This document shows positions 24,549-46,149 of a stretch of DNA of 64,000 bases, one piece after another. The notes below the pieces were generated by a model that was given only the letters and a program-made list of their open reading frames with translations, had not been told where the DNA came from and made no database searches. The stretch is from Calditrichia bacterium (GTDB taxonomy: Bacteria; Calditrichota; Calditrichia; Calditrichales; J004), in the NCBI GenBank assembly GCA_020635035.1, contig JACKAO010000006.1, positions 238,807-302,806 of the forward strand, written 5' to 3'. Both the position numbers and the translations under genes were made by a program. Every line of letters starts with the position of its first letter. Position 1 is the stretch's first letter.

Positions 24549-24761
24549 ATCTTCCTCTATTTTCAATACCGGAATAAGCTAATCTAAAATTCAAAAAACA
24601 GCGAATCTTTTTTGTTCAATATTCTTAATCTTAAACGTGATCATTATCATAATCGCATTCACTTCCACGCCCCTACCCATAACCATTTCGAAAAATCGTG
24701 GTTTTTCATCATCCTGAAATTTTTTCAGGATCTTTAGAATACTGTCTCTAATGTGACTTAA

Positions 24762-24921: not shown

Positions 24922-26364
<1,443 letters not shown>

Positions 26365-29657: not shown

Positions 29658-30251
29658 TTATTTTTTATGTCTTTTTTCAAGAACTTCGATTGTGTCAGAC
29701 AATTTCAGGTTTTGCGCAGCCATCAGCACCAGCAAATGATAGAGCAGGTCGGCGCTTTCTTCTTTAAACAGTTCTTTGTTGTTATCCATCGCTTCAAGAA
29801 TGGTTTCGGTTGCTTCTTCGCCCACTTTCTGGGCGATTTTTTTAACGCCTTTCTGAAACAACTGCGCGGTATAAGACGCGTCTGCCGATGCTGTTTTACG
29901 CTTTTGGATTACTTTTTCCAGCTCAAATAAAAAACTGCTTTCACGGTTTTCTTCATTAAAGCAGGTATCCGCCCCGGTATGGCAGGCCGGGCCTTGTGGT
30001 TTTACTTTGATAAGCAGGGTATCATCATCGCAATCTGGAATTATTTCAGTAACATTTAAAAAGTTACCCGATGTTTCTCCTTTGGTCCATAAGCGTTTTT
30101 TTGTTCGGCTGTAAAAGGTTACCTGTCCGGAAGATTGTGTTTTATCCAGCGCTTCCTGATTCATAAACCCAAGCATGAGTACTTTATTTGTGGCATTATC
30201 CTGGATAATTGCCGGTACGAGTCCATTTAATTTATCAAAATTAATTTTCAT
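29658..30251 (-). CDS. hisI: Bifunctional phosphoribosyl-AMP cyclohydrolase / phosphoribosyl-ATP pyrophosphatase
   Basis: PRA-CH motifs ([15 protein letters not shown]) followed by a PRA-PH helical domain (KVGEEATE...[10 protein letters not shown]). Last gene of the his operon. Confidence 0.95.
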
Positions 30252-31002
30252 ATCTGACCATTATGTTTTGTTCGTAAAGATACTTTTTTAAATCTGTTAT
30301 TTTAATCTCGCCAAAGTGAAAAACGCTGGCTGCCAGGGCGGCATCGGCTTTTCCTTTCTCGAATATATTCTTAAAGTGATCCATATTTCCGGCACCCCCT
30401 GATGCAATCACGGGAATACCCAGGCTTTCTGAAAACATTGCGGTCAGCTCATCTGCAAAACCGTTTTTTGTCCCGTCATGATTCATCGATGTAAGCAGAA
30501 TTTCACCTGCCCCGCGGCTGTCTGCTTCTTTAGCCCATTCCAGGGCTTTAATTTCCGTTGGTGTGCGTCCGCCATCCAGGTAAACATACCAGTCGTTTTC
30601 TTTAAATCGGGCATCAATCGCCAGAACAATACATTGTGAGCCAAAACGCCGGGCCATTATATCCAAAATACCGGGGTTGCGAACGGCTGCCGAGTTTATG
30701 CTTATTTTGTCAGCACCGGCTCCAAGCATGCGCGCCACATCTTCATCCGTCCGGATCCCGCCGCCGACAGTGAAAGGGATGCTCAGGTTCAGGGCGATTT
30801 GCGTTACAAGTTGCGCAAAAGTATTACGTTCTTCGATGGTTGCCGTAATATCCAGGTAAACCAGTTCATCGGCACCGGCGCGGCTGTAGGCTGCACCAAG
30901 CTCCACCGGATCACCGGCATCACGCAGATTGACGAAGTTTATGCCTTTCACCGTACGTCCGTTTTTAATGTCCAGGCAGGGAATAATACGTTTTGTTAAC
31001 AT
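30241..31002 (-). CDS. hisF: Imidazole glycerol phosphate synthase, cyclase subunit
   Basis: Motifs [13 protein letters not shown] and ADELVYLDI; TIM-barrel HisF pattern. Overlaps hisI and hisA. Confidence 0.95.
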
Positions 31003-31718
31003 ACAAATGCTTTCAGTTCATCCAGTGAGATTTTTCCTTCATAAAATGCTTTCCCGAAAATAACACCGTCAATACCATTCTGATCCAGCCTTTCGATGTC
31101 CTTTATGCTGCTTACTCCGCCACTGGCAATCACGTACATAGCCGGGAAACTTTTTTTTATGTCCTTGTACAAATCAATGGCCGGTCCGCTTAATGCACCG
31201 TCACGATTAATATCCGTACTGATCAGGTAGCGAAAACCTTTTTCGTAAAACAGTCTGATAAACTCAAGCACATCCCAGGTGGTCTCTTCCTGCCAGCCGG
31301 AAACAGCAATCTTTCCGTCACGGGCATCGGCGCCAAGAATAAGTTTTTGTGAACCAAACTGCATCAGCCATTGGTCCATCAACTCGGGCTGACGGACGGC
31401 AATGCTGCCGGCAGTTACCTGGTTTGCCCCACAATTTAAAGCCTGTTCAATAACAGCAGTGCTGCTGATACCACCGCCATAATCGACGGTCAGACTGGTT
31501 TTCGAAGCGATCTTTTTAAGTATATCCAGATTCACAGGTTTCTTCTCTTTTGCGCCATCAAGGTCAACCAGGTGCAGTCGCTTTATTCCTGCCTGTTCAA
31601 AGGCCTGAGCAACGTCCAGCGGGTTACTGCTGTATTCCGTTTTCTGCTGGTAATCACCCTGGTAAAGTCTTACGCATTTACCGCCAATGATGTCAATAGC
31701 CGGGATTAATTCAATCAT
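30996..31718 (-). CDS. hisA: ProFAR isomerase
   Basis: Motifs [26 protein letters not shown]. Operon position between hisH and hisF. Confidence 0.95.
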
Positions 31719-32302
31719 AAGTCCAAAAAGTTTTTTAGTAATTTTTCACCATTCTCACCGCTTTTTTCAGGATGGAACTGCACCGCGTAATAATTTTTGT
31801 GCTGCAAAGCAGATGCATAATTTATTCCATAATCTGTTTCCCCGATTACATTTCCTGAATTTTTCTGAGCGTAAAAACTATGCAGAAAATAGAAAAAGCT
31901 GCCTTCCTTAATACCGCTGAATAAAGGTGTTTTAATATTAATCACCCGGTTCCAGCCGACCTGCGGAATTTTAAGTTCTTTAGACTGGAATTTTTTTACC
32001 ACCGTGTCAAAGATGCCCAGCGCGGTTGTGTTATTTTCTTCAGAATGTTTACACATAAGCTGTAATCCCAGGCAGATACCGAGAAACGGCTGACCTAAAT
32101 TCCTGAGTACAGAATCCAGGTTGTGTTTTGTTAAATATTCCATGGCACTGCTGGCTTCTCCCTGTCCGGGAAAAATAACTTTATCCGCTGCATTGATCAC
32201 ATCCGGATCATCGGTCAGGATAGATTTTACACCCAAACGGGTCAGGGCCAGTTCAACGGAATGTATATTACCGGCATTGTATTTTATAATTGCTACTTTC
32301 AT
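31715..32302 (-). CDS. hisH: Imidazole glycerol phosphate synthase, glutamine amidotransferase subunit
   Basis: Class-I GATase catalytic motif GICLGLQLM and FHPEKS. Confidence 0.95.
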   Translation of the reverse strand: MKVAIIKYNAGNIHSVELALTRLGVKSILTDDPDVINAADKVIFPGQGEASSAMEYLTKHNLDSVLRNLGQPFLGICLGLQLMCKHSEENNTTALGIFDTVVKKFQSKELKIPQVGWNRVINIKTPLFSGIKEGSFFYFLHSFYAQKNSGNVIGETDYGINYASALQHKNYYAVQFHPEKSGENGEKLLKNFLDL

Positions 32303-32314
32303 AGATTTATATTT

Positions 32315-33007
32315 TTACCCGGCTGTGGATTTTTTTAGTTCATCCAGCATTTCAAGCTGAATTGCCTGAATTTCAGCCATTCGTTCCCATTGCTGAATTA
32401 ATAAATGATCAACTTTCTGGTGAAGCTGCCTTAGCTCTAATTCTGCTTTTAAATTTATTTTATAGTCCTGTTCAGCCCGATTTCTGTCCCTTGCTTCCTG
32501 CCTGTTTTGGCTCATCATAATGATGGGTGCCTGAAGCGCAGCAAGACAGGAAAGCACCAAATTTAATAAGATGAATGGATAAGGATCAAAAGCCTGAGCT
32601 GCTAAAAAATATGAGTTAACAGAAACCCAAAAAAGCATAATCAAACCAAAGGAAATAATAAATTTCCAACTTCCGCCAAATGAAGCAATCAGATCAGATA
32701 GCTTTTCTCCAAAGGTTAAGTTTTCTTTAAACTCTTTTTCTATATTTTCTGATATTGCTTCATATTCAGATAATTTGTTTATAACATCCAGCTCAAGGTT
32801 GGACACTTCGCCTTTTTCATCAGAGATAAGTTTAAGAAGGTATTCCTTACGATATTTTTGTAAGTCTTCTCTGCAGATAAAACCATTTGTATCCCAATCC
32901 GGATGATCAGGTTTTATTATGCTTACTACAGATGGTCTTACAATTATCGATGGAACGACTTCTGTTTGAGATTCATCTTTACCGCATATTTGACAAATTT
33001 TTTTCAT
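32315..33007 (-). CDS. DUF1003-family membrane protein with N-terminal Cys pair, embedded in the his operon
   Basis: DUF1003 core as I recall it: DPYPFILLNLVLSCLAALQAPIIMMSQNRQEARDRNRAEQDYKINLKAELELRQLH. Two TM segments. N-terminal CQIC. Confidence 0.8.
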   Translation of the reverse strand: MKKICQICGKDESQTEVVPSIIVRPSVVSIIKPDHPDWDTNGFICREDLQKYRKEYLLKLISDEKGEVSNLELDVINKLSEYEAISENIEKEFKENLTFGEKLSDLIASFGGSWKFIISFGLIMLFWVSVNSYFLAAQAFDPYPFILLNLVLSCLAALQAPIIMMSQNRQEARDRNRAEQDYKINLKAELELRQLHQKVDHLLIQQWERMAEIQAIQLEMLDELKKSTAG

Positions 33008-33061
33008 GATTTGCTATAATAATTTTCTGAACCTATAACTCTTAAAATGATTTGTTTTGCG

Positions 33062-34150
33062 CTATAACAGTTCTTTACTGCTTGGTACCTGTTGATTTCC
33101 CGGTTCACGGCGAACAGCCTGACGCACACAGCGTGCAACACCTTTAAAAATGGCTTCAATTTTATGATGTTCGTTTTTACCTTTTGCTTTTATCAGAAGG
33201 TTACAGCGCGCATTATCACTGAATGATTTAAAAAAATGATGAAACATCTCTGTTGGCATTTCGCCAAGTTTTTCGCGTTTAAATTTTACTTTCCAGATCA
33301 GATCGCTGCGCCCAGAAAAATCAAGGGCCACAATTGCGTAACTCTCATCCATGGGTAAAACAAAGCCATAGCGCTCCAATCCTTTTTTATTACCAAGCGC
33401 CTTTTCCAGTGCCTGTCCGAGCACAATTGCACAGTCTTCAGTTGTATGATGTTCATCCACCTGCAGATCACCCTTAATTTTTATGGAGAGATCCACACCG
33501 CTGTGACGGGCAAAAAGGTGCAGCATATGATCAAGAAAACCGATACCTGTTTTTATATCTGCTTTACCGCTGCCATCAAGATTCAGTTCCAGGGAAATAT
33601 CTGTTTCCTGCGTTTTGCGATTGATTTTTACAGTGCGCGTTTCAAGTGCAAGGAAACGATAAATGTCATTCCAGTTAGTTGTTGATAAAATTGCATCGGG
33701 ATGATTTTTATCTGATAAAAAAATGGCTTTTGCACCAAGGTTTTTTGCAAGCTGGATATCCGATTCCCGGTCTCCAATAACATAGCTTTCCGCAAGATCA
33801 TATTTGCCATTCATGTATTTTTTAAGCAATCCCGTTCCCGGTTTGCGGGTTGGCTTGTTCTCATTCGGAAAACTTTTGTCGATTAAGATATCTTTGAATA
33901 CTATACCTTCGCTTTGCAGTGTTTTAAGAATGATGTTATGTGCCGGCCAGAATGTTTCTTCGGGGAAAGAATCGGTCCCAAGACCATCCTGGTTGGTGAC
34001 CATTACCAGCGTGAAATCCAGTTTTGCAATTTTAGCCAATCCGCTTATACTGCCGGGCAAAAAGCTGAGCTTCTCCAGGCTGTCGATCTGTTCATCTTGC
34101 GGCTCATGGATAATGGTGCCATCGCGATCAATAAATAATACTCTTTTCAT
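33062..34150 (-). CDS. hisB: Bifunctional histidinol-phosphatase / imidazoleglycerol-phosphate dehydratase
   Basis: HAD N-domain (LFIDRDGTI, VTNQDG) fused to IGPD (DHMLHLF, DEHHTTEDCAIVLG, NEHHKIEAIFKG). Confidence 0.95.
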   Translation of the reverse strand: MKRVLFIDRDGTIIHEPQDEQIDSLEKLSFLPGSISGLAKIAKLDFTLVMVTNQDGLGTDSFPEETFWPAHNIILKTLQSEGIVFKDILIDKSFPNENKPTRKPGTGLLKKYMNGKYDLAESYVIGDRESDIQLAKNLGAKAIFLSDKNHPDAILSTTNWNDIYRFLALETRTVKINRKTQETDISLELNLDGSGKADIKTGIGFLDHMLHLFARHSGVDLSIKIKGDLQVDEHHTTEDCAIVLGQALEKALGNKKGLERYGFVLPMDESYAIVALDFSGRSDLIWKVKFKREKLGEMPTEMFHHFFKSFSDNARCNLLIKAKGKNEHHKIEAIFKGVARCVRQAVRREPGNQQVPSSKELL

Positions 34151-34158
34151 ATTATACT

Positions 34159-35217
34159 TTACCGGTTTTTGTTATGGTTAAAATCTTTTATCGCTGTAAT
34201 CAACAGCTCATTTTCCTGAGAAGTCCCAACGGTAATCCGCAAACATCCTTCACATAAAGGCTGTTTTGATCTGTCACGAACGATGATTCCATGATCACGC
34301 AGATATTTGAACAACTCCTGAGTTTTTTCAAAACGGACAAGCAGAAAATTTGTATCACTATGAAAAACTTCTTTTACAATACTGATTTGAGACAAAGCAT
34401 TAACCAGTTTTTCACGTTGTCTAAGAATAGATTCAACCATTGAATGCATTACTTCGATTCTTTCAATAGCATTAATTGCCAGCTGTTTGGTAACATCGCT
34501 GATATTATACGGGTATTTTATTTTGTTCAGTACTTTTATGATTTCCGAATGAGCAAAAGCCATCCCCAGACGCAACCCGGCGAGTCCCCAGGCCTTTGAA
34601 AAAGTGTTGATTACAACAAGATTTTCATAATTGTTAAGTTGATGCAGAATACTTTTCTCAGGACAAAAATCGATATAGGCTTCGTCAACCATTACTATTC
34701 CATCGAAGTTTTTGACAACTTTTAAAATTTGTTCATGATCGAAAGCATTGGCGCTGGGATTGTTTGGTGAGCAGATAATAATGATTTTGGTGGTTTCGTC
34801 AACTGCTTTAAGTGCTTTCTCAGCAATCAGGCTGAAGTCATCATTAAGCAGAAAAGATTTTACTGTTATATCATGAATATCAGCCGCAACACGAAACATG
34901 CCATAAGTCGGTTCATGCAATACAATGGAATCCTGACCGGGTTCACAGAATGCCCTGATAAACAAATCGATGGCTTCATCGCTGCCGTTGCCAAGGAAGA
35001 TCTGTTCTACTGAGACATTTTTTATAACGGAAATCTTTTCTTTTAACAAGCGTTGATACGGATCCGGATAGCGGTTCCAATTACCTTTTTCCGCTGAACC
35101 AAAAGCATTTTCATTAGCATCCAGTAGAACACGTGCCGTTCCGCTGAATTCATCCCTTGCAGATGAATATGGTTTTAAAACCTGTATATTTTTTCTGACT
35201 TTTTCCAGGATATTCAT
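34159..35217 (-). CDS. hisC: Histidinol-phosphate aminotransferase
   Basis: Class-II aminotransferase with PLP-lysine region NTFSKAWGLAGLRLG. Operon position. Confidence 0.95.
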   Translation of the reverse strand: MNILEKVRKNIQVLKPYSSARDEFSGTARVLLDANENAFGSAEKGNWNRYPDPYQRLLKEKISVIKNVSVEQIFLGNGSDEAIDLFIRAFCEPGQDSIVLHEPTYGMFRVAADIHDITVKSFLLNDDFSLIAEKALKAVDETTKIIIICSPNNPSANAFDHEQILKVVKNFDGIVMVDEAYIDFCPEKSILHQLNNYENLVVINTFSKAWGLAGLRLGMAFAHSEIIKVLNKIKYPYNISDVTKQLAINAIERIEVMHSMVESILRQREKLVNALSQISIVKEVFHSDTNFLLVRFEKTQELFKYLRDHGIIVRDRSKQPLCEGCLRITVGTSQENELLITAIKDFNHNKNR

Positions 35218-36506
35218 TCAGATTCTCCGTTTAATTTGATCCTGCGAATAGAAACTGAATTTCTATGAGCGATAAGTTGCTCTGCTTCAGCCATTGTTTC
35301 AATAGTGCCGGCAAGATTTTTCAACCCCTGTTCAGATATTTTCTGAAAAGTAATTTTTTTGTAATAACTATCAAGAGAAACGCCACTATATGCTCGTGCA
35401 AAGCCATTTGTCGGCAATGTATGATTGGTTCCGGATGCATAGTCACCGGCAGCTTCAGGGGTGTATGCTCCAATAAAAACAGAACCGGCATTGATAACCT
35501 TTTCAGCAAGCACATCAGCATTTTTTGTGTTTATTATCAGATGTTCCGGGGCATAAAAATTGCTCATGTCCAAAGCATTGTCCAATGATTTACAGAGTAT
35601 AAACCGGCTGTTTTGCAAAGCTTTTTCTGCGATTTCTTTGCGTGGTAGTTTCTCCAGCTGCTTTTCAGTTGCAATAAGGCATTTTTCCAACACTGCTTTA
35701 TCATCACTAAATAAAATGACCTGGCTGTCCGGGCCATGTTCTGCCTGAGCCAGTAAATCCGCTGCAACAAACTCCGGATCGGCTGATATATCGGCAATAA
35801 CTGCTACTTCAGACGGACCGGCAGGCATATCGATCGCGATACCTTCAGTTGAAATACGTTGTTTAGCATACGTCACATATCGGTTACCAGGGCCGAAAAT
35901 CTTATCGACTTTTGGTATAGATTCTGTTCCATACGCTAATGCTGCGATGGCCTGGGCGCCACCACTTTTAAAAACATCTGTGACACCTGCTTCTTTGGCA
36001 GCAAATAAAATCGCAGGATGCAGGTGCCCGTTTTTATCCGGTGGTGAAACCATTATTATTTTTTTACAGCCTGCAAGCTGAGCCGGGATAGCCAGCATTA
36101 ATACTGTTGAAAAGAGCGGGGCACTTCCACCGGGAATATAAATACCCACCTTTTCGATAGCTACAGATTTGCGCCAGCATTTTACACCGGGCATAGTTTC
36201 AAGCGGTTTTTCGTCTGATTTTTGATTTTGGTGAAACCGGCGAATATTTACAGCAGCTGCTTTAATTGCTTCTTTTAAGTTATCAGCGATTGTGTCTGCC
36301 AGTAACCATTCATCTGCTGTAATTGCCAGGGATTGCAGCTTAGTGACATCAAATTTTTCGGAATATTCAAAAAGAGCTTTATCACCGTTGCTTTTAACAT
36401 AATCACATATTTCTGCAACACTGTCTTTTACCTTTTGGTTGTCCAGTTCAGGACGGCTGAGAAGCTTGGGATAGTCCGAAATGTCGGGATATTCAATAAT
36501 TTTCAT
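35214..36506 (-). CDS. hisD: Histidinol dehydrogenase
   Basis: 430 aa with AQAEHGPDSQ and APEHL motifs. 4-nt overlap with hisC. Confidence 0.95.
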   Translation of the reverse strand: MKIIEYPDISDYPKLLSRPELDNQKVKDSVAEICDYVKSNGDKALFEYSEKFDVTKLQSLAITADEWLLADTIADNLKEAIKAAAVNIRRFHQNQKSDEKPLETMPGVKCWRKSVAIEKVGIYIPGGSAPLFSTVLMLAIPAQLAGCKKIIMVSPPDKNGHLHPAILFAAKEAGVTDVFKSGGAQAIAALAYGTESIPKVDKIFGPGNRYVTYAKQRISTEGIAIDMPAGPSEVAVIADISADPEFVAADLLAQAEHGPDSQVILFSDDKAVLEKCLIATEKQLEKLPRKEIAEKALQNSRFILCKSLDNALDMSNFYAPEHLIINTKNADVLAEKVINAGSVFIGAYTPEAAGDYASGTNHTLPTNGFARAYSGVSLDSYYKKITFQKISEQGLKNLAGTIETMAEAEQLIAHRNSVSIRRIKLNGESE

Positions 36507-36519
36507 AATAGTATTTGCT

Positions 36520-37374
36520 TTACATTATCATCTTTTCAATCGGGACAACAAGGATGCCCTGTGCCCCGGCTTTTTTTAACTTGTCAATGTTTTCCCAGAA
36601 GGTGTTTTCTTCAATGACCGAATATAGCGAACTCCATCCTTTTGTAACCAGCGGTGTAATTGTAGGACTTTTCATTCCCGGGAGTATACTGCAAATTTGA
36701 TCGATTGATTCATTTGGTGCATTAAGAATAATATACTTATAGTCTTTGGCAGTTCGTACGGCACGCATTCTGAATATAAGACCCTCAATAAGGCTTATCT
36801 GCTCAGCAGTTGTCTGATCGGATTGAATTAAAACAGCTTCTGATTTCATGACGGTGAACACTTCACGCAATCCATTTGTTATAAGAGTGCTGCCTGTACT
36901 GACGATATCAAAAATTGCATTTGCCAATCCGATTCCCGGAGCAATTTCTACAGAGCCGCTGATTTCATGGATTTCTGCATCAATCTTATTTTCATCCAGA
37001 AATTTTCCCAGGATATGTGGATAAGAAGTAGCAATCTTTTGACCGGAAAGATCCTTCATGCTATTAAAGACTGATTTTTCAGGTACAGCTATAGACAGTC
37101 TGCATTTGGCATAGCCCAATCGTTCGATGATCTTTAAATCAAAACCTTTCTCAAGAAGTGTGTTTTCTCCAACCATCCCGATCTGAGCAATGTTGTCATT
37201 AACGCATTCCGGGATGTCGTCGTCTCTTAATAAAAGTAAACGTAAAGGATAATTTGTCGCGTTTATCATCAACGATCGTTTGCTCAAACCGTTGAATTTG
37301 ATACCGCATTCCTGTAGCAAAGCAAACGTCTGTTCACTTAATCTTCCTGATTTTTGAACCGCCAGTGTAATCAT
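36520..37374 (-). CDS. hisG: ATP phosphoribosyltransferase, long form
   Basis: Starts MITLAVQKSGRL. C-terminal regulatory domain is present. ATG at 37374 follows GGGAGAG. The track ORF starts at a TTG at 37386. Confidence 0.95.
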   Translation of the reverse strand: MITLAVQKSGRLSEQTFALLQECGIKFNGLSKRSLMINATNYPLRLLLLRDDDIPECVNDNIAQIGMVGENTLLEKGFDLKIIERLGYAKCRLSIAVPEKSVFNSMKDLSGQKIATSYPHILGKFLDENKIDAEIHEISGSVEIAPGIGLANAIFDIVSTGSTLITNGLREVFTVMKSEAVLIQSDQTTAEQISLIEGLIFRMRAVRTAKDYKYIILNAPNESIDQICSILPGMKSPTITPLVTKGWSSLYSVIEENTFWENIDKLKKAGAQGILVVPIEKMIM

Positions 37375-37384
37375 GTTCTCTCCC

Positions 37385-37423
37385 AAAATAAAAAAACCCG
37401 GTTACCAAGAGAGCAACCGGGTT
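37385..37423 (-). terminator. Attenuator terminator between the His leader ORF and hisG
   Basis: Minus strand has a perfect 9-bp stem AACCCGGTT/AACCGGGTT with an 11-nt loop GCTCTCTTGGT. It is followed by TTTTTATTTT running into the hisG Shine-Dalgarno site. Confidence 0.75.
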
Positions 37424-37452
37424 GAAGTTTTCAGATATGCAATTCTCCTGGA

Positions 37453-37491
37453 TCACCTTGGGGTGTGCTTATGGTGATGATAGTGATGCAT
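37453..37491 (-). CDS. hisL: Histidine-rich leader peptide (hisL-like), 12 aa
   Basis: Hand translation of the minus strand: ATG CAT CAC TAT CAT CAC CAT AAG CAC ACC CCA AGG TGA = MHHYHHHKHTPR*. Six of 12 codons are His. It lies 117 nt upstream of the hisG ATG and 29 nt upstream of the terminator stem. Confidence 0.7.
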   Translation of the reverse strand: MHHYHHHKHTPR

Positions 37492-37625
37492 ATAATTTCT
37501 GATTTGTTCATTTGTTGTTCGCATGTACTTAATATATTAAAAACCAAAAAATAGCGAAAATTAATTTTGCTGAAAAGATTATCGAAAATTCTTGAAGATT
37601 CTTGAAAATTAATCTGTAAGATTTA

Positions 37626-38765
37626 TTATTCTGAAAATTTCAGGCAAACCGGGCTGGCGTCTGTCTCAACAGAAGACACAAATTCCAGTTGGCCATTGTC
37701 CGGATCAATCCTGAAAACCGAAATATTATTGCTTTTTTGATTCGCTACCAGTAAGAATTTTCCACTGGGATCGATTACAAAATTACGTGGCCAGTTTCCA
37801 TGCACAGGAAAAGTAGCTTTAAAAGATAATTCTCCATTTTCAGGATTTAGATAAAAAAGTGCAATGCTGTTATGTCCGCGATTGGAACCATATAAAAATT
37901 TTCCGGCGGGATGCACATGAATATCTGCACAATAACTCTGCCCGCTAAAGCTATCCGGAAGGGTGCTTATTGTTTGGATTCGCTCTCCGGATGATTTGCC
38001 AAAAACTTCAATTGTATTGGCCAATTCGGTTATAACGTAAATACAATCATTTTTGTAGTTAATTTCAAAATGGCGGGCCCCGCTGCCGGGAGTAAGTGAA
38101 AAATCTTTGTCTTTAAGATGAGTGAGAGTCCCGCTTGATTTGTCAAATTGGTATGTATAAAGTTTATCACTTCCCAGGTCTGCTGCATAGGCAAATTTGT
38201 TTTCTTTTTCCAGGCGAATTGAATGCATATGCGGCGCATCCTGGCGTTTTTTATTTGGCCCTGAGCCTTCGTGGGTAATAACTGAGACAGCTTCCTGCAA
38301 GGATCCATTCTTGGTTATCGGGAAACTTGCCACCGTTGCCCCGACATAATTATTGACGAGTGCGAATTTATTATCTGAAGACAGGCTTATGTAACACGGC
38401 GCCTGTCCTTGAGACGGGACGATGTTTAAAAACTTTAAATTACCATCCTGCGGATTTATCTGAAACGAACTTACAGCACCGCCTGGTTTTCCGTTATACT
38501 CCATGTTTTCATTAACGGCGTATAGATATCTGTTGTCTGATGAGAGAGTTAGGTATGATGGATTTTCAACACCTTTTACAACATGTTTTAACGCCAGTTC
38601 TCCCGTTTGATTGTTGAATGAATAAACATAAATTCCCTGCCCGGAATTTTGCGTGTAAGTTCCGATGTAGATGTTTGAAGTTGAATTTTGGCCTGCTGAT
38701 AACATAGGGATTCCTGCCGATGAGATTAAAAAAATGATTAAAAAGAGTTTTACTGTAAGGCGCAT
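37626..38765 (-). CDS. Secreted lactonase-family 7-bladed beta-propeller protein (6-phosphogluconolactonase/YbhE-like)
   Basis: Signal peptide. Repeated blades with the pattern P..L..S.D.K.LYV.N, typical of the Lactonase family. Confidence 0.75.
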   Translation of the reverse strand: MRLTVKLFLIIFLISSAGIPMLSAGQNSTSNIYIGTYTQNSGQGIYVYSFNNQTGELALKHVVKGVENPSYLTLSSDNRYLYAVNENMEYNGKPGGAVSSFQINPQDGNLKFLNIVPSQGQAPCYISLSSDNKFALVNNYVGATVASFPITKNGSLQEAVSVITHEGSGPNKKRQDAPHMHSIRLEKENKFAYAADLGSDKLYTYQFDKSSGTLTHLKDKDFSLTPGSGARHFEINYKNDCIYVITELANTIEVFGKSSGERIQTISTLPDSFSGQSYCADIHVHPAGKFLYGSNRGHNSIALFYLNPENGELSFKATFPVHGNWPRNFVIDPSGKFLLVANQKSNNISVFRIDPDNGQLEFVSSVETDASPVCLKFSE

Positions 38766-38834: not shown

Positions 38835-40025
38835 TTAAAATGAATATTTGGTTCTCAGATAGAATGCTTTTCCGTAATTACCAAACTCACTCAGATTTGG
38901 GCCTTCTGTCAAAAAACCAATCAGATAAAGGTCCAGGTTAGTAATAACAGACCATGAAATTGATGGAACAAAAATAGATGAATTATCCTGCGGGTTGTGT
39001 AAAACAAAAAAGTCTCCGCGGACCAAGGGATGCAGGTCGTAAGCAGTTTCAAAAAACAAAGACCAGCGGGAAGGAGAAAGCAGCCCGGCTTGCACTGCCT
39101 GAAATGTGTACAATCCACTATACTCGGTTTTGCCAATGGAATTGTATAAAACTTCAGAGTGCAGATAAAATGAACTGGGAAATGTATAATCAGCGGATAA
39201 AACCGCACTGATGTTTTTTGAATTTGCCTGACTGTAATTTTCGCCAAAAGGTAATAAAGTTCCCTGTAGTTGGTCTCTCGAAGGTGGCTTTGTGTATTTA
39301 AATTCTCCCCGAAAACCGGCTCCCCGGATATCTCCGGAGAAAGCGGCGGCAAAAAGCGGGCTGTTATTTTGAATAGCCGAAATAAGGTAAAAATCGTAAT
39401 CCCAGTTATTGAACAGCCACAATAAGGCCGCCGTTTGTTTGTTGCTATTCTTAGCCGGTTTGTAAACAGCCTCCAGCCGGCCAATGGCCCCGGTGTAATA
39501 CTGAACACGAATGGCGTCACTTCCCGGTTTTTCTTCATAATCGAAATCAAGAATGGATTGCGGGTTGAATAAATCGATAACATTCCAGACAAGACTGGTT
39601 CCCCAGGCAATGCGCTGGCGCCCGATTGTAAATTGCCAGCTTCCGCTGGTATAATCAAAAAAGAGACGATCCACCTGTCCATAACCAAGCGACGAATTTT
39701 GATGCCACAACACTGTCTTTAAATCTGCAAAAGGGTAGTTGGTTATGACAGTTGATTTGAATCCCGGCGTTTTTTCAACCATGCCGCCATTAAATCCGCG
39801 AATCCGGAATTCCAGCCCGGCGGTCAGGTTGCTGGTCGGGTACCAGCGGTTATTTAATCGAAAATGAACCTGGTGATCGATCAAATTTTCGTTGCTGATA
39901 AGTTTGTTTTCTGCAACGGAAAAAAGATATTTGGCATAACCGTAGGTCTGCCAATTTTCGCTTTGAGCAAAAACATTGGCAGCCGCCAAAAACAAAGTGA
40001 GAATTAGCAGTTTTAGTTTCATCAT
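38835..40025 (-). CDS. Outer-membrane beta-barrel protein (uncharacterised), last gene of the ABC/LolA-like operon
   Basis: Signal peptide ending AQS. Alternating-hydrophobicity strands throughout. C-terminal YLRTKYSF ends in an aromatic residue. ATGA overlap with the ATPase gene. Confidence 0.6.
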   Translation of the reverse strand: MMKLKLLILTLFLAAANVFAQSENWQTYGYAKYLFSVAENKLISNENLIDHQVHFRLNNRWYPTSNLTAGLEFRIRGFNGGMVEKTPGFKSTVITNYPFADLKTVLWHQNSSLGYGQVDRLFFDYTSGSWQFTIGRQRIAWGTSLVWNVIDLFNPQSILDFDYEEKPGSDAIRVQYYTGAIGRLEAVYKPAKNSNKQTAALLWLFNNWDYDFYLISAIQNNSPLFAAAFSGDIRGAGFRGEFKYTKPPSRDQLQGTLLPFGENYSQANSKNISAVLSADYTFPSSFYLHSEVLYNSIGKTEYSGLYTFQAVQAGLLSPSRWSLFFETAYDLHPLVRGDFFVLHNPQDNSSIFVPSISWSVITNLDLYLIGFLTEGPNLSEFGNYGKAFYLRTKYSF

Positions 40026-40708
40026 TTATTAATCTTGTCTTCTTTTACCATACCGTCTTCAAGGGTGACCACTCGGCGGGCACGTTTTATGACACGCGCA
40101 TCATGCGTTGAGAAAATAAAGGTCATATTATGCTTTTTGTTCATTTCTTCCATCATGTCAAGCAGGGATTCTGCTGATTTTGAATCCAGGTTCGCTGTCG
40201 GTTCATCCGCCAGTACAAAAGCCGGTTTGGAAGCAAGGGCACGGGCTACAGCAACGCGCTGCTGCTGACCACCGGAGAGTTGTGAAGGTCGATTATCCAT
40301 GCGGTCACCTAAACCGACATCCTGCAGCAGGTTCTCAGCCTGTTCACGTCTCTCTTTTTTGGAAACCTTTTGCAGCAGCATGATAAATTCCACGTTTTCA
40401 AGCGCGGTTAAAACAGGAATCAGGTTATACGCCTGGAAAACAAAACCGATTTTATTCAGGCGAAAATCAACCAGGTTGCCTGGTTTCATTTTTGTGATAT
40501 CATTATTATCAATGATAACGGTTCCATTGGTCGGCTTATCTAGGCCACCTAAAATATTAAGCATGGTGGTTTTGCCTGATCCCGACGGACCAACAATGGC
40601 AGTAAATTCCTGTTTTTCAAAAGTTATATTGATGTCTTTTAACGCGTTGACAGGAACGGCCGTGGTGTTGTAGGTTTTTGAAATGTCTTTTAACTCAATA
40701 AGTGCCAT
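40022..40708 (-). CDS. ABC transporter ATP-binding protein, LolD/MacB-type
   Basis: Walker A GPSGSGKTT, signature LSGGQQQRVAVARAL, Walker B VLADEPTANLD. Confidence 0.95.
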   Translation of the reverse strand: MALIELKDISKTYNTTAVPVNALKDINITFEKQEFTAIVGPSGSGKTTMLNILGGLDKPTNGTVIIDNNDITKMKPGNLVDFRLNKIGFVFQAYNLIPVLTALENVEFIMLLQKVSKKERREQAENLLQDVGLGDRMDNRPSQLSGGQQQRVAVARALASKPAFVLADEPTANLDSKSAESLLDMMEEMNKKHNMTFIFSTHDARVIKRARRVVTLEDGMVKEDKINK

Positions 40709-40765
40709 TTTTTGATTTCTCCTTAAAAATCTTTTATCGAATTCTTAATCTACTTCTGTTAAAAA

Positions 40766-41983
40766 TTAATACGTTCGGATTGCTTCTGCCGGCGTCAGAT
40801 GTGTAGCTTTCCAGGCCGGCAGCAAAGCTGCAATATTTGCCGCAAATAAAATCATAATGGTTAAACCGATATACATACTTGCCGGCAGGAACGGGTAAAG
40901 CATTGAAGCCGATCCAAAACTTTCCAGCCCGGTCGCAAAGGCTGAGAGATCAATGCCGGCACTGTTAAAAAATCCTATAAAGAAACCACCCACCGTCATT
41001 CCCAGAATACCGCCGGTCATGGAAAGGAAAATGGTTTCAAGCAGGATCATAAAAAATACCCGGCTTTTTTTCATTCCTACCGCTGTTAATATGCCCAGCT
41101 CGCGGATGCGTTCCACAACACTCATCAGCATATTGTTGGTAATTCCGAACAACAGGGCAAAAAGGATGATGGCGACAAACAGGTACGTGAAGGCTTCCAT
41201 AGATGACGACACAAAGGCCAGCTCCGGAGCCATCTTTTCCCAGGTTTCGACGGCCAAACCCGGTAATGCTGATGCAAGATTTTGTTCTACGACAGGGACG
41301 TATTTTGCGGACTTCACGCGGATGGCAATTTCGTGTATCAAAGTCTCTGTCTGATGCAGCGAGCGCATCAGGTCAACTTGCCGCAGAAAAACATTGGTTT
41401 CGTCAAAGACACTGGACTCCGTCTTGAAAATTCCGGTGATACGGCAGGCCAGGTAGATGATTTCCCCGTGGACATCCTGGAAGGTTAAGATAATTTTTGA
41501 TCTTAATTTAAGGTTCAAACGATCCGCCAGCTTTTTACCGATAATGACCTGGTTTCGTTTCTGTGTATCAAAATAATCACCGTCGACAATTTTTTGATAC
41601 AGGCGGCTTACACTTTTTTCTGCCACACGATCGATGCCGACTATTTTTACACCGAATGATGACGCTGCACTGGCAGCCATTCCTTCTAAAATGGTTCGTT
41701 TGGAATACCCGGCAATTGAATCCTGGGCATTGATGGCATTTTCAACCGCTTTTACATCTTTGATGTAGTTGGTAATCTGGACATCATCTTTAAACTTTTT
41801 GGAGTGGATTTCAACATGACCCAGGTAACGATCAATAGCAGAATCAACCATGGATTCCGCCATACCCATCATAATGGCACCGGAAAACAAACCACCCCAG
41901 AGTCCGAGCATTATAGCCAGGATAATCACCAGGCTGCGTTTTTTGTTGCGCCAGATATTTTTCCATGCAAGTTGAGTTAACAT
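40766..41983 (-). CDS. FtsX/LolC/E-type ABC permease (paralog 3)
   Basis: N-terminal LAWKNIWRNKKRS. One TM, a large periplasmic domain, then three C-terminal TM segments (FtsX domain). Confidence 0.9.
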   Translation of the reverse strand: MLTQLAWKNIWRNKKRSLVIILAIMLGLWGGLFSGAIMMGMAESMVDSAIDRYLGHVEIHSKKFKDDVQITNYIKDVKAVENAINAQDSIAGYSKRTILEGMAASAASSFGVKIVGIDRVAEKSVSRLYQKIVDGDYFDTQKRNQVIIGKKLADRLNLKLRSKIILTFQDVHGEIIYLACRITGIFKTESSVFDETNVFLRQVDLMRSLHQTETLIHEIAIRVKSAKYVPVVEQNLASALPGLAVETWEKMAPELAFVSSSMEAFTYLFVAIILFALLFGITNNMLMSVVERIRELGILTAVGMKKSRVFFMILLETIFLSMTGGILGMTVGGFFIGFFNSAGIDLSAFATGLESFGSASMLYPFLPASMYIGLTIMILFAANIAALLPAWKATHLTPAEAIRTY

Positions 41984-42043
41984 TTATTTTCCTTTCACAC
42001 TTTGTCATGCTGGGTAATTAAAGTATTTACCTTACTTTCATAA

Positions 42044-42068
42044 GATTCTTCACTGCGTTCAGAATGAC
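42044..42068. repeat. REP-like palindromic element (GATTC...GAATGAC type), copy 2
   Basis: GATTCTTCACTGCGTTCAGAATGAC, with the same 25-nt frame and flanks as 24762-24786. An inverted GTCATGCTG at 42004-42012 faces the GTCATTCTG on the other strand. Confidence 0.4.
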
Positions 42069-42088
42069 ACTTGTTTTAAACTATATTT

Positions 42089-43303
42089 TTATCTTCTCAT
42101 GGCCTGGATTGGTTTTAAGTGACCAATAAACAGCAACGGGTAAAGCGCGCAAAACAGGGCAATCACAAAAACAATTATCGATTGCCAGAAATAAATATCC
42201 GGATTTACACTAAAGGTCATGATAGGTTCAATGCCCAGGCTTTCCCAGGCAGCTGCCGAATCTCCGCTTAAAACAATCGGATTGGCTTTCAGGTACGCTG
42301 TTATCGGGATGCTGCCCAGAACTCCGAAAACAACACCAATAAGTGAAATCATCACACTCTCAATCAATGAGACAAAAATCATTCTTTGTTTTTTCATGCC
42401 GATCGAATTCAAAATGCCGAACTCCTTTTCTCGTTCGGCGGTCATCATCATGATGGTGCCAAAAACGCCGAATGCAATCACCATGTAAAGTATTCCGATC
42501 ATAATCAGCCCGCTGGCGTTGTCCATTTCAATGCTCTGGACCAGGTCGGGCATCATTTCGTCCCAGGTCATTACAGTCAGTTTATTTGTAAGCATCCCAT
42601 GGACCGCATCGTTAACGGTTTCCAAATTGCGGATATTATCAATCATGATCGAAAGCGACGTGATACGTCCCGGGGCAGCGTAAATATATTGGGCGTTCGG
42701 GAGATCGATAAAAGCCATGGCATCGTTCATTTGCGGAAGCGGCAGCTCTACAATTCCGGTGATTTTCAGCTCCGCTGCTGCAATTTGTCCGTGAAAACCA
42801 CTGCCGTACAAAACAATCGAATCGCCAAGTACAGCTTTTAAACGTTTCGCCAATCCGCTGGCTATAATAATACCCTGATCACCACTTTGCAGGTATTGAC
42901 CGGAAACCAATTTTTTATCCAGTTCCGTCATATTGTGTTCTTTTTGCGGATCGATGCCGATAACCGGAGAAACCTTTGTGATTGAATCTTTTGATAACAG
43001 GGCAAAGGCTTCCAGCCTTGGTGTTAACGATGTAATATGATTTATTTTCTGTAAAGAATCCTGAAAGCCGGAAGTCAGCTGGATGCTTTCGTCCAATGAT
43101 CGGTTTTCCCAAAACTTTTCACCCTGGATTTGCAGGTAACCGGTTTGCATTTTTGCGGCCGAATCAATCATGTAACTGTAAGAACCCAATTGGGCGGAGC
43201 GCATTACACAGGCAAGGATGACGGCAAAAAAAACGGAAGCTGACACGATCACAGTTCTCTTTTTATTACGCCAGATATTTTTCCAGGCAAGTTTAAAATA
43301 CAT
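42089..43303 (-). CDS. FtsX/LolC/E-type ABC permease (paralog 2)
   Basis: Starts MYFKLAWKNIWRNKKRTVIVSASVFFAVILAC. Clearly paralogous to the upstream permease along its whole length. Confidence 0.9.
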   Translation of the reverse strand: MYFKLAWKNIWRNKKRTVIVSASVFFAVILACVMRSAQLGSYSYMIDSAAKMQTGYLQIQGEKFWENRSLDESIQLTSGFQDSLQKINHITSLTPRLEAFALLSKDSITKVSPVIGIDPQKEHNMTELDKKLVSGQYLQSGDQGIIIASGLAKRLKAVLGDSIVLYGSGFHGQIAAAELKITGIVELPLPQMNDAMAFIDLPNAQYIYAAPGRITSLSIMIDNIRNLETVNDAVHGMLTNKLTVMTWDEMMPDLVQSIEMDNASGLIMIGILYMVIAFGVFGTIMMMTAEREKEFGILNSIGMKKQRMIFVSLIESVMISLIGVVFGVLGSIPITAYLKANPIVLSGDSAAAWESLGIEPIMTFSVNPDIYFWQSIIVFVIALFCALYPLLFIGHLKPIQAMRR

Positions 43304-43316
43304 TTAAATTTTCCTT

Positions 43317-44528
43317 TTATTTTTTCAGGGCTTTAACAATTTTTAAACGGCTGAGAAACAACATTGGATAAATCAGGCAGATAAAAGAAATTATAAAAAT
43401 AATCATGGCCTGGTTTACAAAAATAGACGGATCGGCGCTGAAGGAAAAAACCGCTTCAATGCCAAGCTGCTCCCAGGATTTAGCAATTTCGCCGGTAAGT
43501 TGGATCGGGTGATGCGCCAGGTATGTGGTCACAGGGATGGCGGCAATAATTCCGCTCAAAGTGCCAATGGACGCCAGGAAAACGTTTTCAAAAAATGTAA
43601 CCAGGAACATGCGCCTTTTTTTCATGCCAAGCGCATTTAGAATGCCATATTCGGTTTCTCTTTCCAGCGTCATCATCATCACAACCCCGAAAATACCAAA
43701 GGCAATAACAATATACAGGATGCCGATAAGAATAAAATTGCTGCTGGTTTTAAACTGAATGGTCTGTTTGATTTCCGGGAGCAGTTCTTCCCAGGTTAAA
43801 ACGGTTTCATCGCTGGAAATAAATTTATGAATATCACCTGATACACGGTTTAACTCATTAAGGTCATCAATCATAACGGCTAAAGAAGTAATCCGGTTCT
43901 CCAAACCAAAAATGTCGGCGGCTTTTTTGATATTAATATAAACTGTCGATGTATTCATTTTTTCAATTGGAAATTTTAAAATTCCTGTGACAGGAAGCAG
44001 GGCAGCCGCTGTTTGGCCGTGAAATCCTAACCCGTATATAAGCAGTGAATCGCCGATTGAAAGTTTTAACCTTTCCGCCAAACCGGATGCAATCAAAGCT
44101 CCATCTTTGAGAGAAAAATATTCACCTTTTTGCAGATATTTTGATGTCCCGCTTACTTTATCTTCAGCGTGTGGATCAATTCCGGTAATATGTGCAACGC
44201 GTACAAGACTGTCTCCGGAGATCAGAACAACACTTTCAATCCTTGGAGTAATACTGGTTATATTTTTTATTTTATTGATTTCGTCCTTTTGTGAATCACT
44301 CAGAACAATGCTGTCATCCAGCGAGCGGTTTTCCCAGTAGTTTTTATGCTGGACCTGTAATACCCCAAGGTAAATTTTTGTGATGGAGTGGACCATGTAA
44401 TCAAAACTACCTATCTGCGCAGACCGCTGCAGGCAGGATAAAATAACAGCAAAAAAAACGGATGCAGAGACAATCAGAGTACGTTTCTTATTGCGCCAGA
44501 CATTTTTCCAGGCAAGTTTCAGATACAT
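43317..44528 (-). CDS. FtsX/LolC/E-type ABC permease (paralog 1)
   Basis: Starts MYLKLAWKNVWRNKKRTLIVSASVFFAVILSC. Same architecture as paralog 2. Confidence 0.9.
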   Translation of the reverse strand: MYLKLAWKNVWRNKKRTLIVSASVFFAVILSCLQRSAQIGSFDYMVHSITKIYLGVLQVQHKNYWENRSLDDSIVLSDSQKDEINKIKNITSITPRIESVVLISGDSLVRVAHITGIDPHAEDKVSGTSKYLQKGEYFSLKDGALIASGLAERLKLSIGDSLLIYGLGFHGQTAAALLPVTGILKFPIEKMNTSTVYINIKKAADIFGLENRITSLAVMIDDLNELNRVSGDIHKFISSDETVLTWEELLPEIKQTIQFKTSSNFILIGILYIVIAFGIFGVVMMMTLERETEYGILNALGMKKRRMFLVTFFENVFLASIGTLSGIIAAIPVTTYLAHHPIQLTGEIAKSWEQLGIEAVFSFSADPSIFVNQAMIIFIISFICLIYPMLFLSRLKIVKALKK

Positions 44529-44536
44529 ATCATGCT

Positions 44537-45385
44537 CTATTTTTTAAGAGTTTTAAAATATTCTTTTAGAGTTGTCTTTCCATAACTGTCAGCGATCATA
44601 TCCATCGTTAGTACAGTCATAAAAAATTCAATCGGGCCATAAATTTTAACGGTTGTAAAGAATCGGATAATTTTCAACAGGAATCGCGACATCCAAATAG
44701 GGATGTAACGGATTTTTTTCTTTTTGCCCAAAACATCGAAGGCAATTTCTGCAATCTGGTTCTGCGTCAAAATTTCAGGGCCGCCTATTTCAATTTCTTT
44801 TTTGTCCGAATCGATATTTTGCACGATGTTGTCTGCTAAATCTTTTCCGTCGATGGGATTTGCTTTAAGATTGCCATCGCCAAAAAGGTAAACGGTATTC
44901 TTCTCTGCCATTCGAAAAATTTCGGATACATCGGAGAAAAAACCGTTGGGGTTAATAATCAGGTAGGGCATCCCGGAAGATCTTAGCGCTTCTGCAAATT
45001 TTAATTTGGCTTGTATTATTTTAAGATCTTTTAATTTATGACCATTAAAAACAGAGACATAAATGAACTTCTTTACCCCACATTTCTGCGCTTCATTCAG
45101 CAAATTTAAATTCGCCCGGTAGTCAACATCCATATAGGTTAAGCCATCACGCTGTTTTGTTATGCCAACCGTGGAAATCACAACATCAATTTCATTGATA
45201 GTGTCTTTTAAAGTTTCCGGCTTTGTTACTTCTGCTTCAATATATTTTGCAACATATTTGTCCAGGTGTTTGATTTTATTCTTGATTCGAACAAGCGCTG
45301 TAACCCGGAAATTATTTTCTGATAAGCTTTGAACAAGGCGCTGACCCAAATATCCTGAAGCGCCGGCTACTAATACAGATCTCAC
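44537..45385 (-). CDS. NmrA-like / atypical SDR NAD(P)-binding protein
   Basis: Rossmann motif VLVAGASGYLGQ. GTG start preceded by AGGAG. Lies inside the ABC operon. Confidence 0.7.
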   Translation of the reverse strand: MRSVLVAGASGYLGQRLVQSLSENNFRVTALVRIKNKIKHLDKYVAKYIEAEVTKPETLKDTINEIDVVISTVGITKQRDGLTYMDVDYRANLNLLNEAQKCGVKKFIYVSVFNGHKLKDLKIIQAKLKFAEALRSSGMPYLIINPNGFFSDVSEIFRMAEKNTVYLFGDGNLKANPIDGKDLADNIVQNIDSDKKEIEIGGPEILTQNQIAEIAFDVLGKKKKIRYIPIWMSRFLLKIIRFFTTVKIYGPIEFFMTVLTMDMIADSYGKTTLKEYFKTLKK

Positions 45386-45399
45386 TTCTATTACTCCTG

Positions 45400-46149
45400 C
45401 TATCTTACGCGTTTCATGTTCTGCTGAGAAAAGAAATCGGTACTGAGTTTTTTATTGAACTCAATATCTTTGTACTCCATAATTGTTTTCTGACCCGGTT
45501 TATCTTCAGGAGTAACTTCCCAGTAGGAAGGAATTGTCCGGCCACCTATTTCCTTTATTTTATCCCCGGTCATGCTTTTAACCAGGTAGTCGTCTTCATC
45601 GTAGTATTCAATTTTTAACTGGAGATAGCTTTCTTTTGAAATCCAGATGTATATTTTCCCCCAGACGACGCCGGCTTCCGGCTTTGGATCCAGATGAATT
45701 TTATAACAATCGTATCCTTTATATTTTTCTTCTCCGATGATCGAATGATTATAGTCTTGTACAATGGAAGACTGGCGGACAAGGTCATCATTTGTAAAAT
45801 CCGAACCCATCCAGGATTGCAGCATCATTGAAGGCGGGATTTTAATCGTACGCTGCACCGTGGGGATGTAATTCCAGACTTCATTTTTACGCTTTAAAGT
45901 AACCGTTCCTTTATCACGCGCGGGTTCAGTCACGAGAACAAGTGCATAATCCGGTTCAATTGACCATACTTTCATGTGCATTTCCCTCGACCAGTCCGGT
46001 TTTACTATTTTCATTATTACTTCCGAATAACTGCTGTTAGCACGCAAAAGCTGGTTGGATTTATCTACGATATCACGGGCGCTATCCTGGGCATAAAGCA
46101 AAGATGAAAAAATAAATACAACCAGGAAAAAAAAAGATATTGATTTCAT
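45400..46149 (-). CDS. LolA-like outer-membrane lipoprotein-sorting protein family member
   Basis: Signal peptide, about 250 aa. The pattern (ARDIVDKS...MKIV...W.REM.MKVW...ALV....P.RDKGT..L....E.W.Y.P......KI) matches the LolA_like family as I recall it. Confidence 0.7.
   Translation of the reverse strand: MKSISFFFLVVFIFSSLLYAQDSARDIVDKSNQLLRANSSYSEVIMKIVKPDWSREMHMKVWSIEPDYALVLVTEPARDKGTVTLKRKNEVWNYIPTVQRTIKIPPSMMLQSWMGSDFTNDDLVRQSSIVQDYNHSIIGEEKYKGYDCYKIHLDPKPEAGVVWGKIYIWISKESYLQLKIEYYDEDDYLVKSMTGDKIKEIGGRTIPSYWEVTPEDKPGQKTIMEYKDIEFNKKLSTDFFSQQNMKRVR

Follow-up and report, generated by a model that had tools for sequence, protein, structure and literature searches.

A probable hisL-type transcription attenuator ahead of the hisG operon in a 64-kb contig segment, and its occurrence among bacteria of the FCB group

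In this study, we analyzed a stretch of 64,000 nucleotides (nt) of contig JACKAO010000006.1 (hereafter the window, i.e., this whole stretch of DNA) and found, on its minus strand directly upstream of the histidine biosynthesis gene hisG, a short open reading frame (ORF) with a run of His codons that is followed by an intrinsic terminator. An earlier note on this DNA had proposed attenuation here. Judged by its sequence and by modeled RNA folds, the element is very probably a histidine-responsive, ribosome-mediated transcription attenuator (a hisL-type leader) of the hisGDCB-DUF1003-hisHAF-IE operon. A His-rich ORF, an intrinsic terminator, an antiterminator that excludes the terminator in silico, and conservation together with the operon were all found. 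Minimum free energy (MFE) folding and reading of the sequence gave the following features, numbered by window position:

37531-37536, minus strand: -10-like box TATATT, a putative promoter, 6 nt upstream of the leader ATG 37524
37453-37524, minus strand: long form of the leader ORF, probably its true extent, reading MRTTNEQIRNYMHHYHHHKHTPR* from the in-frame ATG 37524 (23 codons and stop)
37453-37491, minus strand: short form of the leader ORF, reading MHHYHHHKHTPR* from ATG 37491-37489 to the stop codon 37455-37453
37465-37488, minus strand: regulatory His-codon cluster CAT CAC TAT CAT CAC CAT AAG CAC (6 His in 8 codons)
37436-37492, minus strand: hairpin 1:2, a protector or pause hairpin, present in both the MFE and the centroid structure (-12.2 kcal/mol)
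37432-37457, minus strand: region 2, which supplies the antiterminator's 5' strand (GGU..CCAGGAGA..GCA..CUG), from duplex prediction
37395-37423, minus strand: intrinsic terminator hairpin AACCCGGUUGCU-CUCUU-GGUAACCGGGUU (12 bp, 6 of them G-C; -18.5 kcal/mol)
37385-37394, minus strand: terminator T-run, TTTTT A TTTT (7 T in a row if two inside the stem are counted)
37378-37384, minus strand: Shine-Dalgarno (SD) site of hisG, GGGAGAG, outside the hairpin, from reading of the sequence
29658-37374, minus strand: his operon by Pfam, with hisG (36520-37374), hisD, hisC, hisB (bifunctional), DUF1003, hisH, hisA, hisF and hisIE

Across all six frames of the window, the leader is the single stretch with at least five His within seven codons. 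The short form (ATG CAT CAC TAT CAT CAC CAT AAG CAC ACC CCA AGG TGA) had been described as a mini-ORF of 13 codons including the stop, with 6 His among 12 codons, and reading the minus strand again gives the same sequence; its ATG also lies 117 nt upstream of the hisG ATG (37374-37372), as claimed. The sequence of the leader stands as described. Its translation probably begins 33 nt farther upstream, at ATG 37524, which places the six His codons between codons 13 and 20. We infer this start from close relatives of the locus (L006, L089, L007 and L008, presented below), because the longer leader resembles theirs in length and N-terminus (MQLTNKK... in L006, MLKINPNK... in L089, MNAQKKN... in L007), because in L008 the upstream ATG is the sole in-frame start with no internal one, and because the TATATT box is conserved 5-6 nt before the leader ATG in L006 (843-856), L089, L007 and L008. 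The internal ATG 37491, which sits in the 5' strand of the 1:2 hairpin, may instead be the leader start; the window, L089 and L006 all have an ATG or GTG immediately 5' of their His codons. Given a box 6 nt before ATG 37524 and no SD sequence at that start, the leader mRNA is possibly leaderless; that it is leaderless or nearly so, and translated from 37524, seems to us an even bet. In Bacteroidota-type loci, the leader ATG is preceded by a TAnnTTTG box at a distance of either 4-10 nt or about 17-18 nt.

The terminator stem had been given as 9 bp beginning 29 nt after the leader stop codon (AACCCGGTT, 37423-37415; an 11-nt loop; AACCGGGTT, 37403-37395). These positions agree with the sequence, and both RNAfold and a terminator scan lengthen the stem to 12 pairs, which leaves 5 nt for the loop. 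Together with the inner stem, this loop (37419-37400) is at the same time the 3' strand of the predicted antiterminator. The T-run (37394-37385) directly adjoins the hisG SD site (37384-37378), as previously stated, and the terminator hairpin, which the T-run follows, ends 20 nt ahead of the hisG ATG. A start of hisG at ATG 37374, behind GGGAGAG, is plausible, rather than at a TTG in the T-run. The automated ORF list begins hisG at this TTG (37384-37386; ORF 36520-37386), and automatic annotation with such a start could hide the terminator inside the hisG coding sequence.

Conservation of the element was examined in loci collected from genomes (5) and metagenomes (80), with others added through look-ups of close HisG relatives. 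Wherever 150 nt or more were available upstream, the 300 nt next to hisG were searched for a mini-ORF with at least three His in seven codons. It was present in 69 of 80 loci (the window counted), compared with 3 of 80 reverse complements and 0 of 80 shuffled sequences; at a threshold of four His, 60 loci remained and both controls gave 0 (n = 80). Downstream of the mini-ORF, nearly all leader loci have a hairpin (-10 to -26 kcal/mol) and a T-run, and in most of them the hairpin ends 10-50 nt ahead of hisG. Named carriers are two Ferruginibacter metagenome-assembled genomes (MAGs), one Calditrichia MAG, two Marinimicrobia MAGs and one MAG labelled Caldithrix abyssi. The best named HisG relatives of the window are Marinimicrobia and Calditrichia MAGs at 62-65% identity, and metagenomic proteins reach 92-71%. 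The earlier note had asked whether a His-rich mini-ORF is kept in relatives, and indeed mini-ORF and terminator are both retained at HisG 92-71% as well as in relatives at 60-65%, among them Calditrichia, Marinimicrobia and Ferruginibacter MAGs. The five closest loci, each with a His-run mini-ORF, a hairpin and a T-run, are:

L006: HisG 92%, leader MQLTNKKLSPVHHHFHPYSPYR
L089: HisG 84%, leader MLKINPNKNHMHHHHITTRFR
L007: HisG 75%, leader MNAQKKNICNTLHNHLHNHHNYFYR
L090: HisG 73%, leader ..MHHRHYNHHYNHHYNFYR, with the contig cut at its 5' end
L008: HisG 71%, leader MSANNFVFHGHHHHHFRV

The gene upstream of the leader varies (L006-L008, L093 and L095 were compared): it encodes a lactonase in the window and, elsewhere, an SDR protein, thymidylate kinase, trpA or others. 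Since these genes differ while leader and terminator stay, the element belongs to hisG and not to the upstream gene. Outside the His run and the RNA-pairing segments, the leader peptide varies freely in sequence as well as in length (12 to 45 aa). No His-run mini-ORF was detected within 300 nt of hisG in 11 of the 80 loci (about 1 in 8), and at L091 and L092 (HisG 67%) the terminator is kept with an ORF of two His only. It seems from both observations that the attenuator has been lost or replaced repeatedly. The loci without a His run include L002 (a Cytophagales MAG), L017, L042, L043, L047, L056, L058, L062, L065 (a human-gut contig) and L077.

The leader RNA can adopt alternative structures. 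When free, it folds into two hairpins, 1:2 and the terminator (z = -2.65). The former is absent from the earlier note; in it, AUCACC and UAUGCAUC of the His-codon region are paired with GGUGAU, GG, GA and UGCAUA, which surround and follow the stop codon. Region 2 begins 2 nt before the stop codon, shares one base with it and extends 21 nt beyond. As had been proposed, CCAGGAGA (37451-37444) and TCTCTTGG (37412-37405) are complementary, one of the pairs being G-U, and GGT (37457-37455) can extend this pairing to ACC (37402-37400). The predicted extent of the antiterminator needs correction: GCA:UGC and CUG:CGG add to GGU:ACC, so that both terminator arms are reached. The 8-bp core CCAGGAGA:UCUCUUGG has an energy of -8.5 kcal/mol and the full antiterminator one of -17.1 kcal/mol. 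By a geometric argument, an 8-bp loop helix with connectors of 1-2 nt should be unable to coexist with a closed stem of 9-12 bp. We also considered CCAGGAGAA as the SD sequence of a downstream ORF and rejected it, as the close relatives that were read have no correctly spaced, conserved start codon. The sequence CCUCCAGA is a designed variant of CCAGGAGA.

Switching was modeled by folding nascent transcripts in which only part of the terminator 3' arm has emerged and the ribosome footprint is masked. In these folds of the window leader, the antiterminator is the MFE structure only when the ribosome stands on His13-18; it is so neither with the ribosome at the stop codon nor with no ribosome. 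At the stop codon, the footprint covers 37451-37444 and the antiterminator does not form, in agreement with the masking by a terminating ribosome that had been suggested before. The same behavior was observed more widely in a comparative test on 63 loci having both leader and terminator. Here, complementarity to the terminator is higher for the segment that runs up to it from the edge of the stalled ribosome than for dinucleotide shuffles (mean z -1.44; p<=0.05 in 26 of the 63 loci). On average, 11.2 terminator bases are captured with the ribosome stalled on His codons, 3.5 with the ribosome at the stop codon and 5.2 with no ribosome, and capture under His stalling exceeds that at the stop codon in 58 of 63 loci (Wilcoxon 4e-11). 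As a control, shuffling the spacer lowered His-stalled capture from 11.7 to 5.8 bases (p 1.6e-10).

In the proposed mechanism, transcription would begin at or just before ATG 37524, and a ribosome would translate the 23-codon leader. When charged tRNA-His is plentiful, the ribosome would reach the UGA codon (37455-37453), where its footprint, extending about 12 nt beyond the first base of the A-site codon, would cover CCAGGAGA (37451-37444); the terminator (37423-37395) and the U-run would then form, and RNA polymerase would stop before hisG. When tRNA-His is scarce, the ribosome would stall on the His codons, breaking the 1:2 hairpin and leaving region 2 (37457-37432) free to pair with the emerging 5' arm and loop of the terminator through CUG:CGG, GCA:UGC, CCAGGAGA:UCUCUUGG and then GGU:ACC. 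Once this antiterminator had formed, the terminator stem could not close, and polymerase would read through into hisG in the cell. With no translation, the 1:2 hairpin and the terminator would both form (super-attenuation). We give the exact antiterminator pairing, as drawn here from the models, roughly equal chances of being right or wrong.

Several observations weigh against this proposal or parts of it. No SD sequence was seen before either candidate leader start (37524 or 37491); across the window, an SD site was found for 22 of 38 genes, with the exceptions being mostly operon-internal genes. In equilibrium folds, the MFE structure contains the terminator at whichever codon the ribosome mask is placed. 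The comparison of terminator and antiterminator energies that the earlier note had recommended as a test thus has no discriminating power, as the terminator wins at equilibrium for every ribosome position. Because of this, the model rests on co-transcriptional kinetics; in classical attenuators, the terminator likewise wins at equilibrium. The window duplex between region 2 and the terminator (-19.7 kcal/mol, z -2.5) stands only moderately above chance (p 0.015 against dinucleotide shuffles). When the window spacer is shuffled, the 15 captured terminator bases compare with 9.0, and 4 of 20 shuffles capture as many. The spacer effect is weak in L006 (9 of 20 shuffles), where one antiterminator core pair is broken, and strong in L007 and L008. 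Moreover, the strongest antiterminator helix in the window targets the loop of the terminator and its 3' arm, not the 5' arm, whereas in most other loci of the Fibrobacteres-Chlorobi-Bacteroidetes (FCB) group the antiterminator partner is the 5' arm of the terminator. The core CCAGGAGA:UCUCUUGG is invariant in the window, L006, L089, L007 and L090, so that covariation comes from L008 alone. Finally, Rfam family RF00514 (His_leader) gave no match at E<=10 on 37300-37700, and at the gathering threshold no Rfam family was found in the whole window or in 20 related loci. Sub-threshold hits to MicF, anti-hemB, atoC and Thr_leader (18 bits, with a threshold of 55) were dismissed as chance matches driven by the terminator hairpin.

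Further comparison within the sub-lineage formed by the window, L006, L089, L007, L090 and L008 revealed compensatory changes in each of the structures. In the terminator, L007 and L090 share a compensatory change from U-A to C-G, and L008 carries several changes; in the 1:2 hairpin, one compensatory pair is C-G in the window and U-A in L007 and L090. L008 alters both strands of the antiterminator jointly (CCGGGAGAA:UUCUUUCCGG). As MAFFT misregisters L008 in the terminator and antiterminator, its column pair counts were unusable, and a duplex prediction of its own was used. The other five of the six sequences have CCAGGAGA, in the form GCAGGAGA in L006.

These comparisons bear on the strongest alternative, namely a working His-leader attenuator with a different switch. 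According to this explanation, the loop would pair with CCAAGG (codons 21-22, 37461-37456), or the 1:2 hairpin and the terminator would act alone, with the ribosome affecting polymerase pausing or coupling, and the start might be 37491. CCAAGG can indeed make six pairs with UCUUGG, but the masked folds choose the CCAGGAGA pairing instead. A start at 37491 would suit the ATG or GTG that adjoins the His codons in the window, L089 and L006, but L008 has no internal in-frame start. Likewise, the core pairing is without variation in the five closest sequences and the window antiterminator is individually only moderately significant, yet CCAGGAGA is present in five of the six sub-lineage sequences and co-varies with the loop in L008. 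Altogether, we consider a different switch unlikely.

Compared with the sub-lineage, other leaders of the FCB group fall into families with another layout. Family A has leaders ending in ...HHHHxHTCSQAR and the terminator AAACCCGUCUGAG..CAGGCGGGUUU; its loci, 70-130 nt upstream of hisG, include L018, L020, L021, L025, L033, L041, L054, L069, L072, L082 and others. Leaders of family B (Ferruginibacter), such as ..HIHHHHLTxx, come with the terminator AGGGCUUACC..GGUAAGCCCUU, and family C, which includes Marinimicrobia leaders ending in GTGMR, has the terminator AACCCGGUU..AACCGGGUU. The antiterminator strand of families A and B, and of most of C, is the conserved peptide tail itself, which mimics the 3' arm of the terminator and thereby pairs with its 5' arm. 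The conservation of tails such as CSQAR and GTGMR arises because they encode an RNA antiterminator, and they illustrate how RNA-level constraint can act on a coding sequence. In the sub-lineage, the antiterminator strand lies almost wholly past the stop codon, and its main helix is with the terminator loop and inner stem. It is tempting, if somewhat doubtful, to see in these six loci a distinct His-attenuator design, with a leaderless leader ORF and an SD-like post-stop strand (CCAGGAGA) invading the loop and 3' arm, where classical attenuators and most other FCB loci sequester the 5' arm, and in the FCB-wide His leaders (Bacteroidota, Calditrichota, Marinimicrobia) an uncurated RNA family or families that Rfam lacks.

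Other explanations depart further from the attenuator proposed here. The hairpin and T-run might be the terminator of the upstream lactonase gene (37626-38765), or an insulator, with the His mini-ORF being coincidental. The hairpin does lie about 200 nt downstream of this same-strand gene, and terminator-like sites in a 2-kb stretch (3 versus 1.9 expected from shuffles) show no excess; on the other hand, a promoter-like box separates the lactonase gene from the leader, mini-ORF and terminator accompany hisG where upstream genes differ or sit on the other strand, and the contrast of 69 of 80 loci with 3 of 80 and 0 of 80 controls argues against coincidence, which makes this explanation very improbable. 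Equally improbable is a functional His-rich micropeptide (e.g., a metal binder), or a leader that controls translation rather than transcription of hisG. His-rich peptides can bind metals, and the ORF is conserved as an ORF, but conservation within it is confined to the His run and the RNA-pairing segments while the rest varies in sequence and length (12 to 45 aa), and a position immediately upstream of the histidine biosynthesis operon suits amino acid sensing. As for translational control, the hisG SD site lies outside the hairpin and downstream of the T-run, which points to termination and not to SD occlusion. A ribosome-independent RNA sensor (a T-box binding tRNA-His, a riboswitch or the target of an RNA-binding protein) is the least credible of all, as neither a T-box nor any other Rfam family reached threshold in the window or in 20 related loci and the leader is only about 130 nt long and dominated by an ORF with a His-codon run, even though his operons of Firmicutes use T-boxes (PMC2965389).

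The mechanism and the gene context of the attenuator are already known in the superphylum; what is new is the lineage and the variant layout of the antiterminator. Attenuators in Bacteroidetes/Chlorobi were reportedly predicted by Vitreschak et al. in 2004. Enterobacterial hisL resembles the window element in its His codons within a short ORF, its 1:2, 2:3 and 3:4 hairpins, its terminator before hisG and the order of its operon. The hisL leader has 7 consecutive His, whereas in the window 6 His in 9 codons are broken by Tyr and Lys, the leader has no SD sequence and the operon has the extra DUF1003 gene. The sequences are too short to decide on shared ancestry with hisL, e.g., through operon transfer (PMC8305728).

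The closest published counterpart is the hisG element for attenuation by a leader peptide in Flavobacterium psychrophilum, with a 19-aa leader (MSLNQLHHHHFHICSQAKC; Guerin et al. 2021, Table S7, PMC9723704), for which a mapped 5' end, a terminator and read-through in nutrient-poor or minimal media were reported (PMC9723704). These expression data lend indirect support to the predicted translation of the window leader and to a rise of its read-through under histidine starvation. Both elements consist of a His-run mini-ORF and then an intrinsic terminator directly upstream of hisG, both occur in the FCB group and neither has an Rfam match. The metagenomic loci of family A clearly represent the same element as the F. 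psychrophilum leader MSLNQLHHHHFHICSQAKC. In contrast, the window belongs to a different phylum and shares no sequence similarity with it in peptide tail, antiterminator or terminator. Region 2 of F. psychrophilum is part of the ORF, at its end (CSQA codons), and has the terminator's 5' arm as its partner, whereas that of the window is mostly post-stop and pairs mainly with loop and inner stem; its mapped 5' untranslated region is 14 nt long, whereas the window leader is possibly leaderless. The earlier note had implied that an element of this kind is unusual for such a lineage. It is more ordinary than that, as the element is widespread in the FCB group and has been published for a Flavobacterium.

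The Bacteroid-trp leader (RF01692; Weinberg et al. 2010, PMC2864571) is a curated family of leader-peptide attenuators from Bacteroidetes; it represents the same mechanism in the same superphylum, but senses Trp, precedes the trp operon and differs in sequence and structure. Covariance models of RF01692 and of the T-box gave no match in the window, where the codons are His and the operon is his. Naville and Gautheret (2010, PMC2965389) described His leader peptides in bacilli, where they precede hisZ and a paralogue of hisS. These also combine a His-codon ORF with a premature terminator outside Proteobacteria, but they belong to Firmicutes, precede other genes and have no sequence relation to the window element. 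The his T-boxes of Firmicutes also convert tRNA-His charging into a choice between terminator and antiterminator, but do so by direct tRNA binding without translation.

Leaders of family A, of the Ferruginibacter type and of the Marinimicrobia type have no entry in Rfam 15, nor are such elements discussed in a survey from 2021 that covers the his genes of the superphylum (PMC8305728). His-leader attenuation appears common upstream of long-form hisG in the FCB group, in Bacteroidota, Marinimicrobia and Calditrichota. From the roughly 70 loci, one or more new leader families could be built for Rfam, to the benefit of small-ORF annotation, and the his operon of an uncultured Calditrichota-like lineage, in which the element stands unannotated, gains a testable regulatory annotation. 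The current understanding of attenuation is unchanged by this finding.

With regard to the lineage, the window most likely derives from a Calditrichota-like member of the FCB group. The best named matches of its type III glutamine synthetase (GSIII) are Calditrichaeota MAGs (70% and 68%), followed by KSB1, in line with the previous view that the lineage is far from enterobacteria, and this assignment agrees with the type IX secretion system (T9SS) sorting domains in the window. The operon order hisG-D-C-B-H-A-F-IE, which had been called enterobacterial, was supported by Pfam except for one extra DUF1003 gene between hisB and hisH. This gene (PF06210; 32315-33007, minus strand, 230 aa), with gaps of 54 and 12 nt, lies outside the canonical hisGDCBHAFIE set.

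Besides the his operon, some other genes of the window deserve mention. About 230 nt past hisIE, a 496-aa protein (27938-29428, minus strand) combines an N-terminal cyclic-nucleotide-binding domain (PF00027) with a phosphofructokinase domain (PF00365). This is an unusual fusion, and its domains suggest a phosphofructokinase regulated by a cyclic nucleotide. Two tandem paralogues of the beta-eliminating lyase family (PF01212; tryptophanase or tyrosine phenol-lyase) are encoded at 23178-24566 and 24922-26364 on the minus strand with a spacer of 355 nt; reading of the spacers upstream of both tryptophanase-like genes for tnaC-like leader ORFs gave nothing convincing. Farther along the window (40022-46149, minus strand), three tandem FtsX/MacB-type permease paralogues (40766-41983, 42089-43303 and 43317-44528) accompany one ABC ATPase (40022-40708), with a LolA-like protein (45400-46149) and a TetR regulator (46160-46771) as neighbours; this looks like an expanded Lol/MacB-like export cluster.

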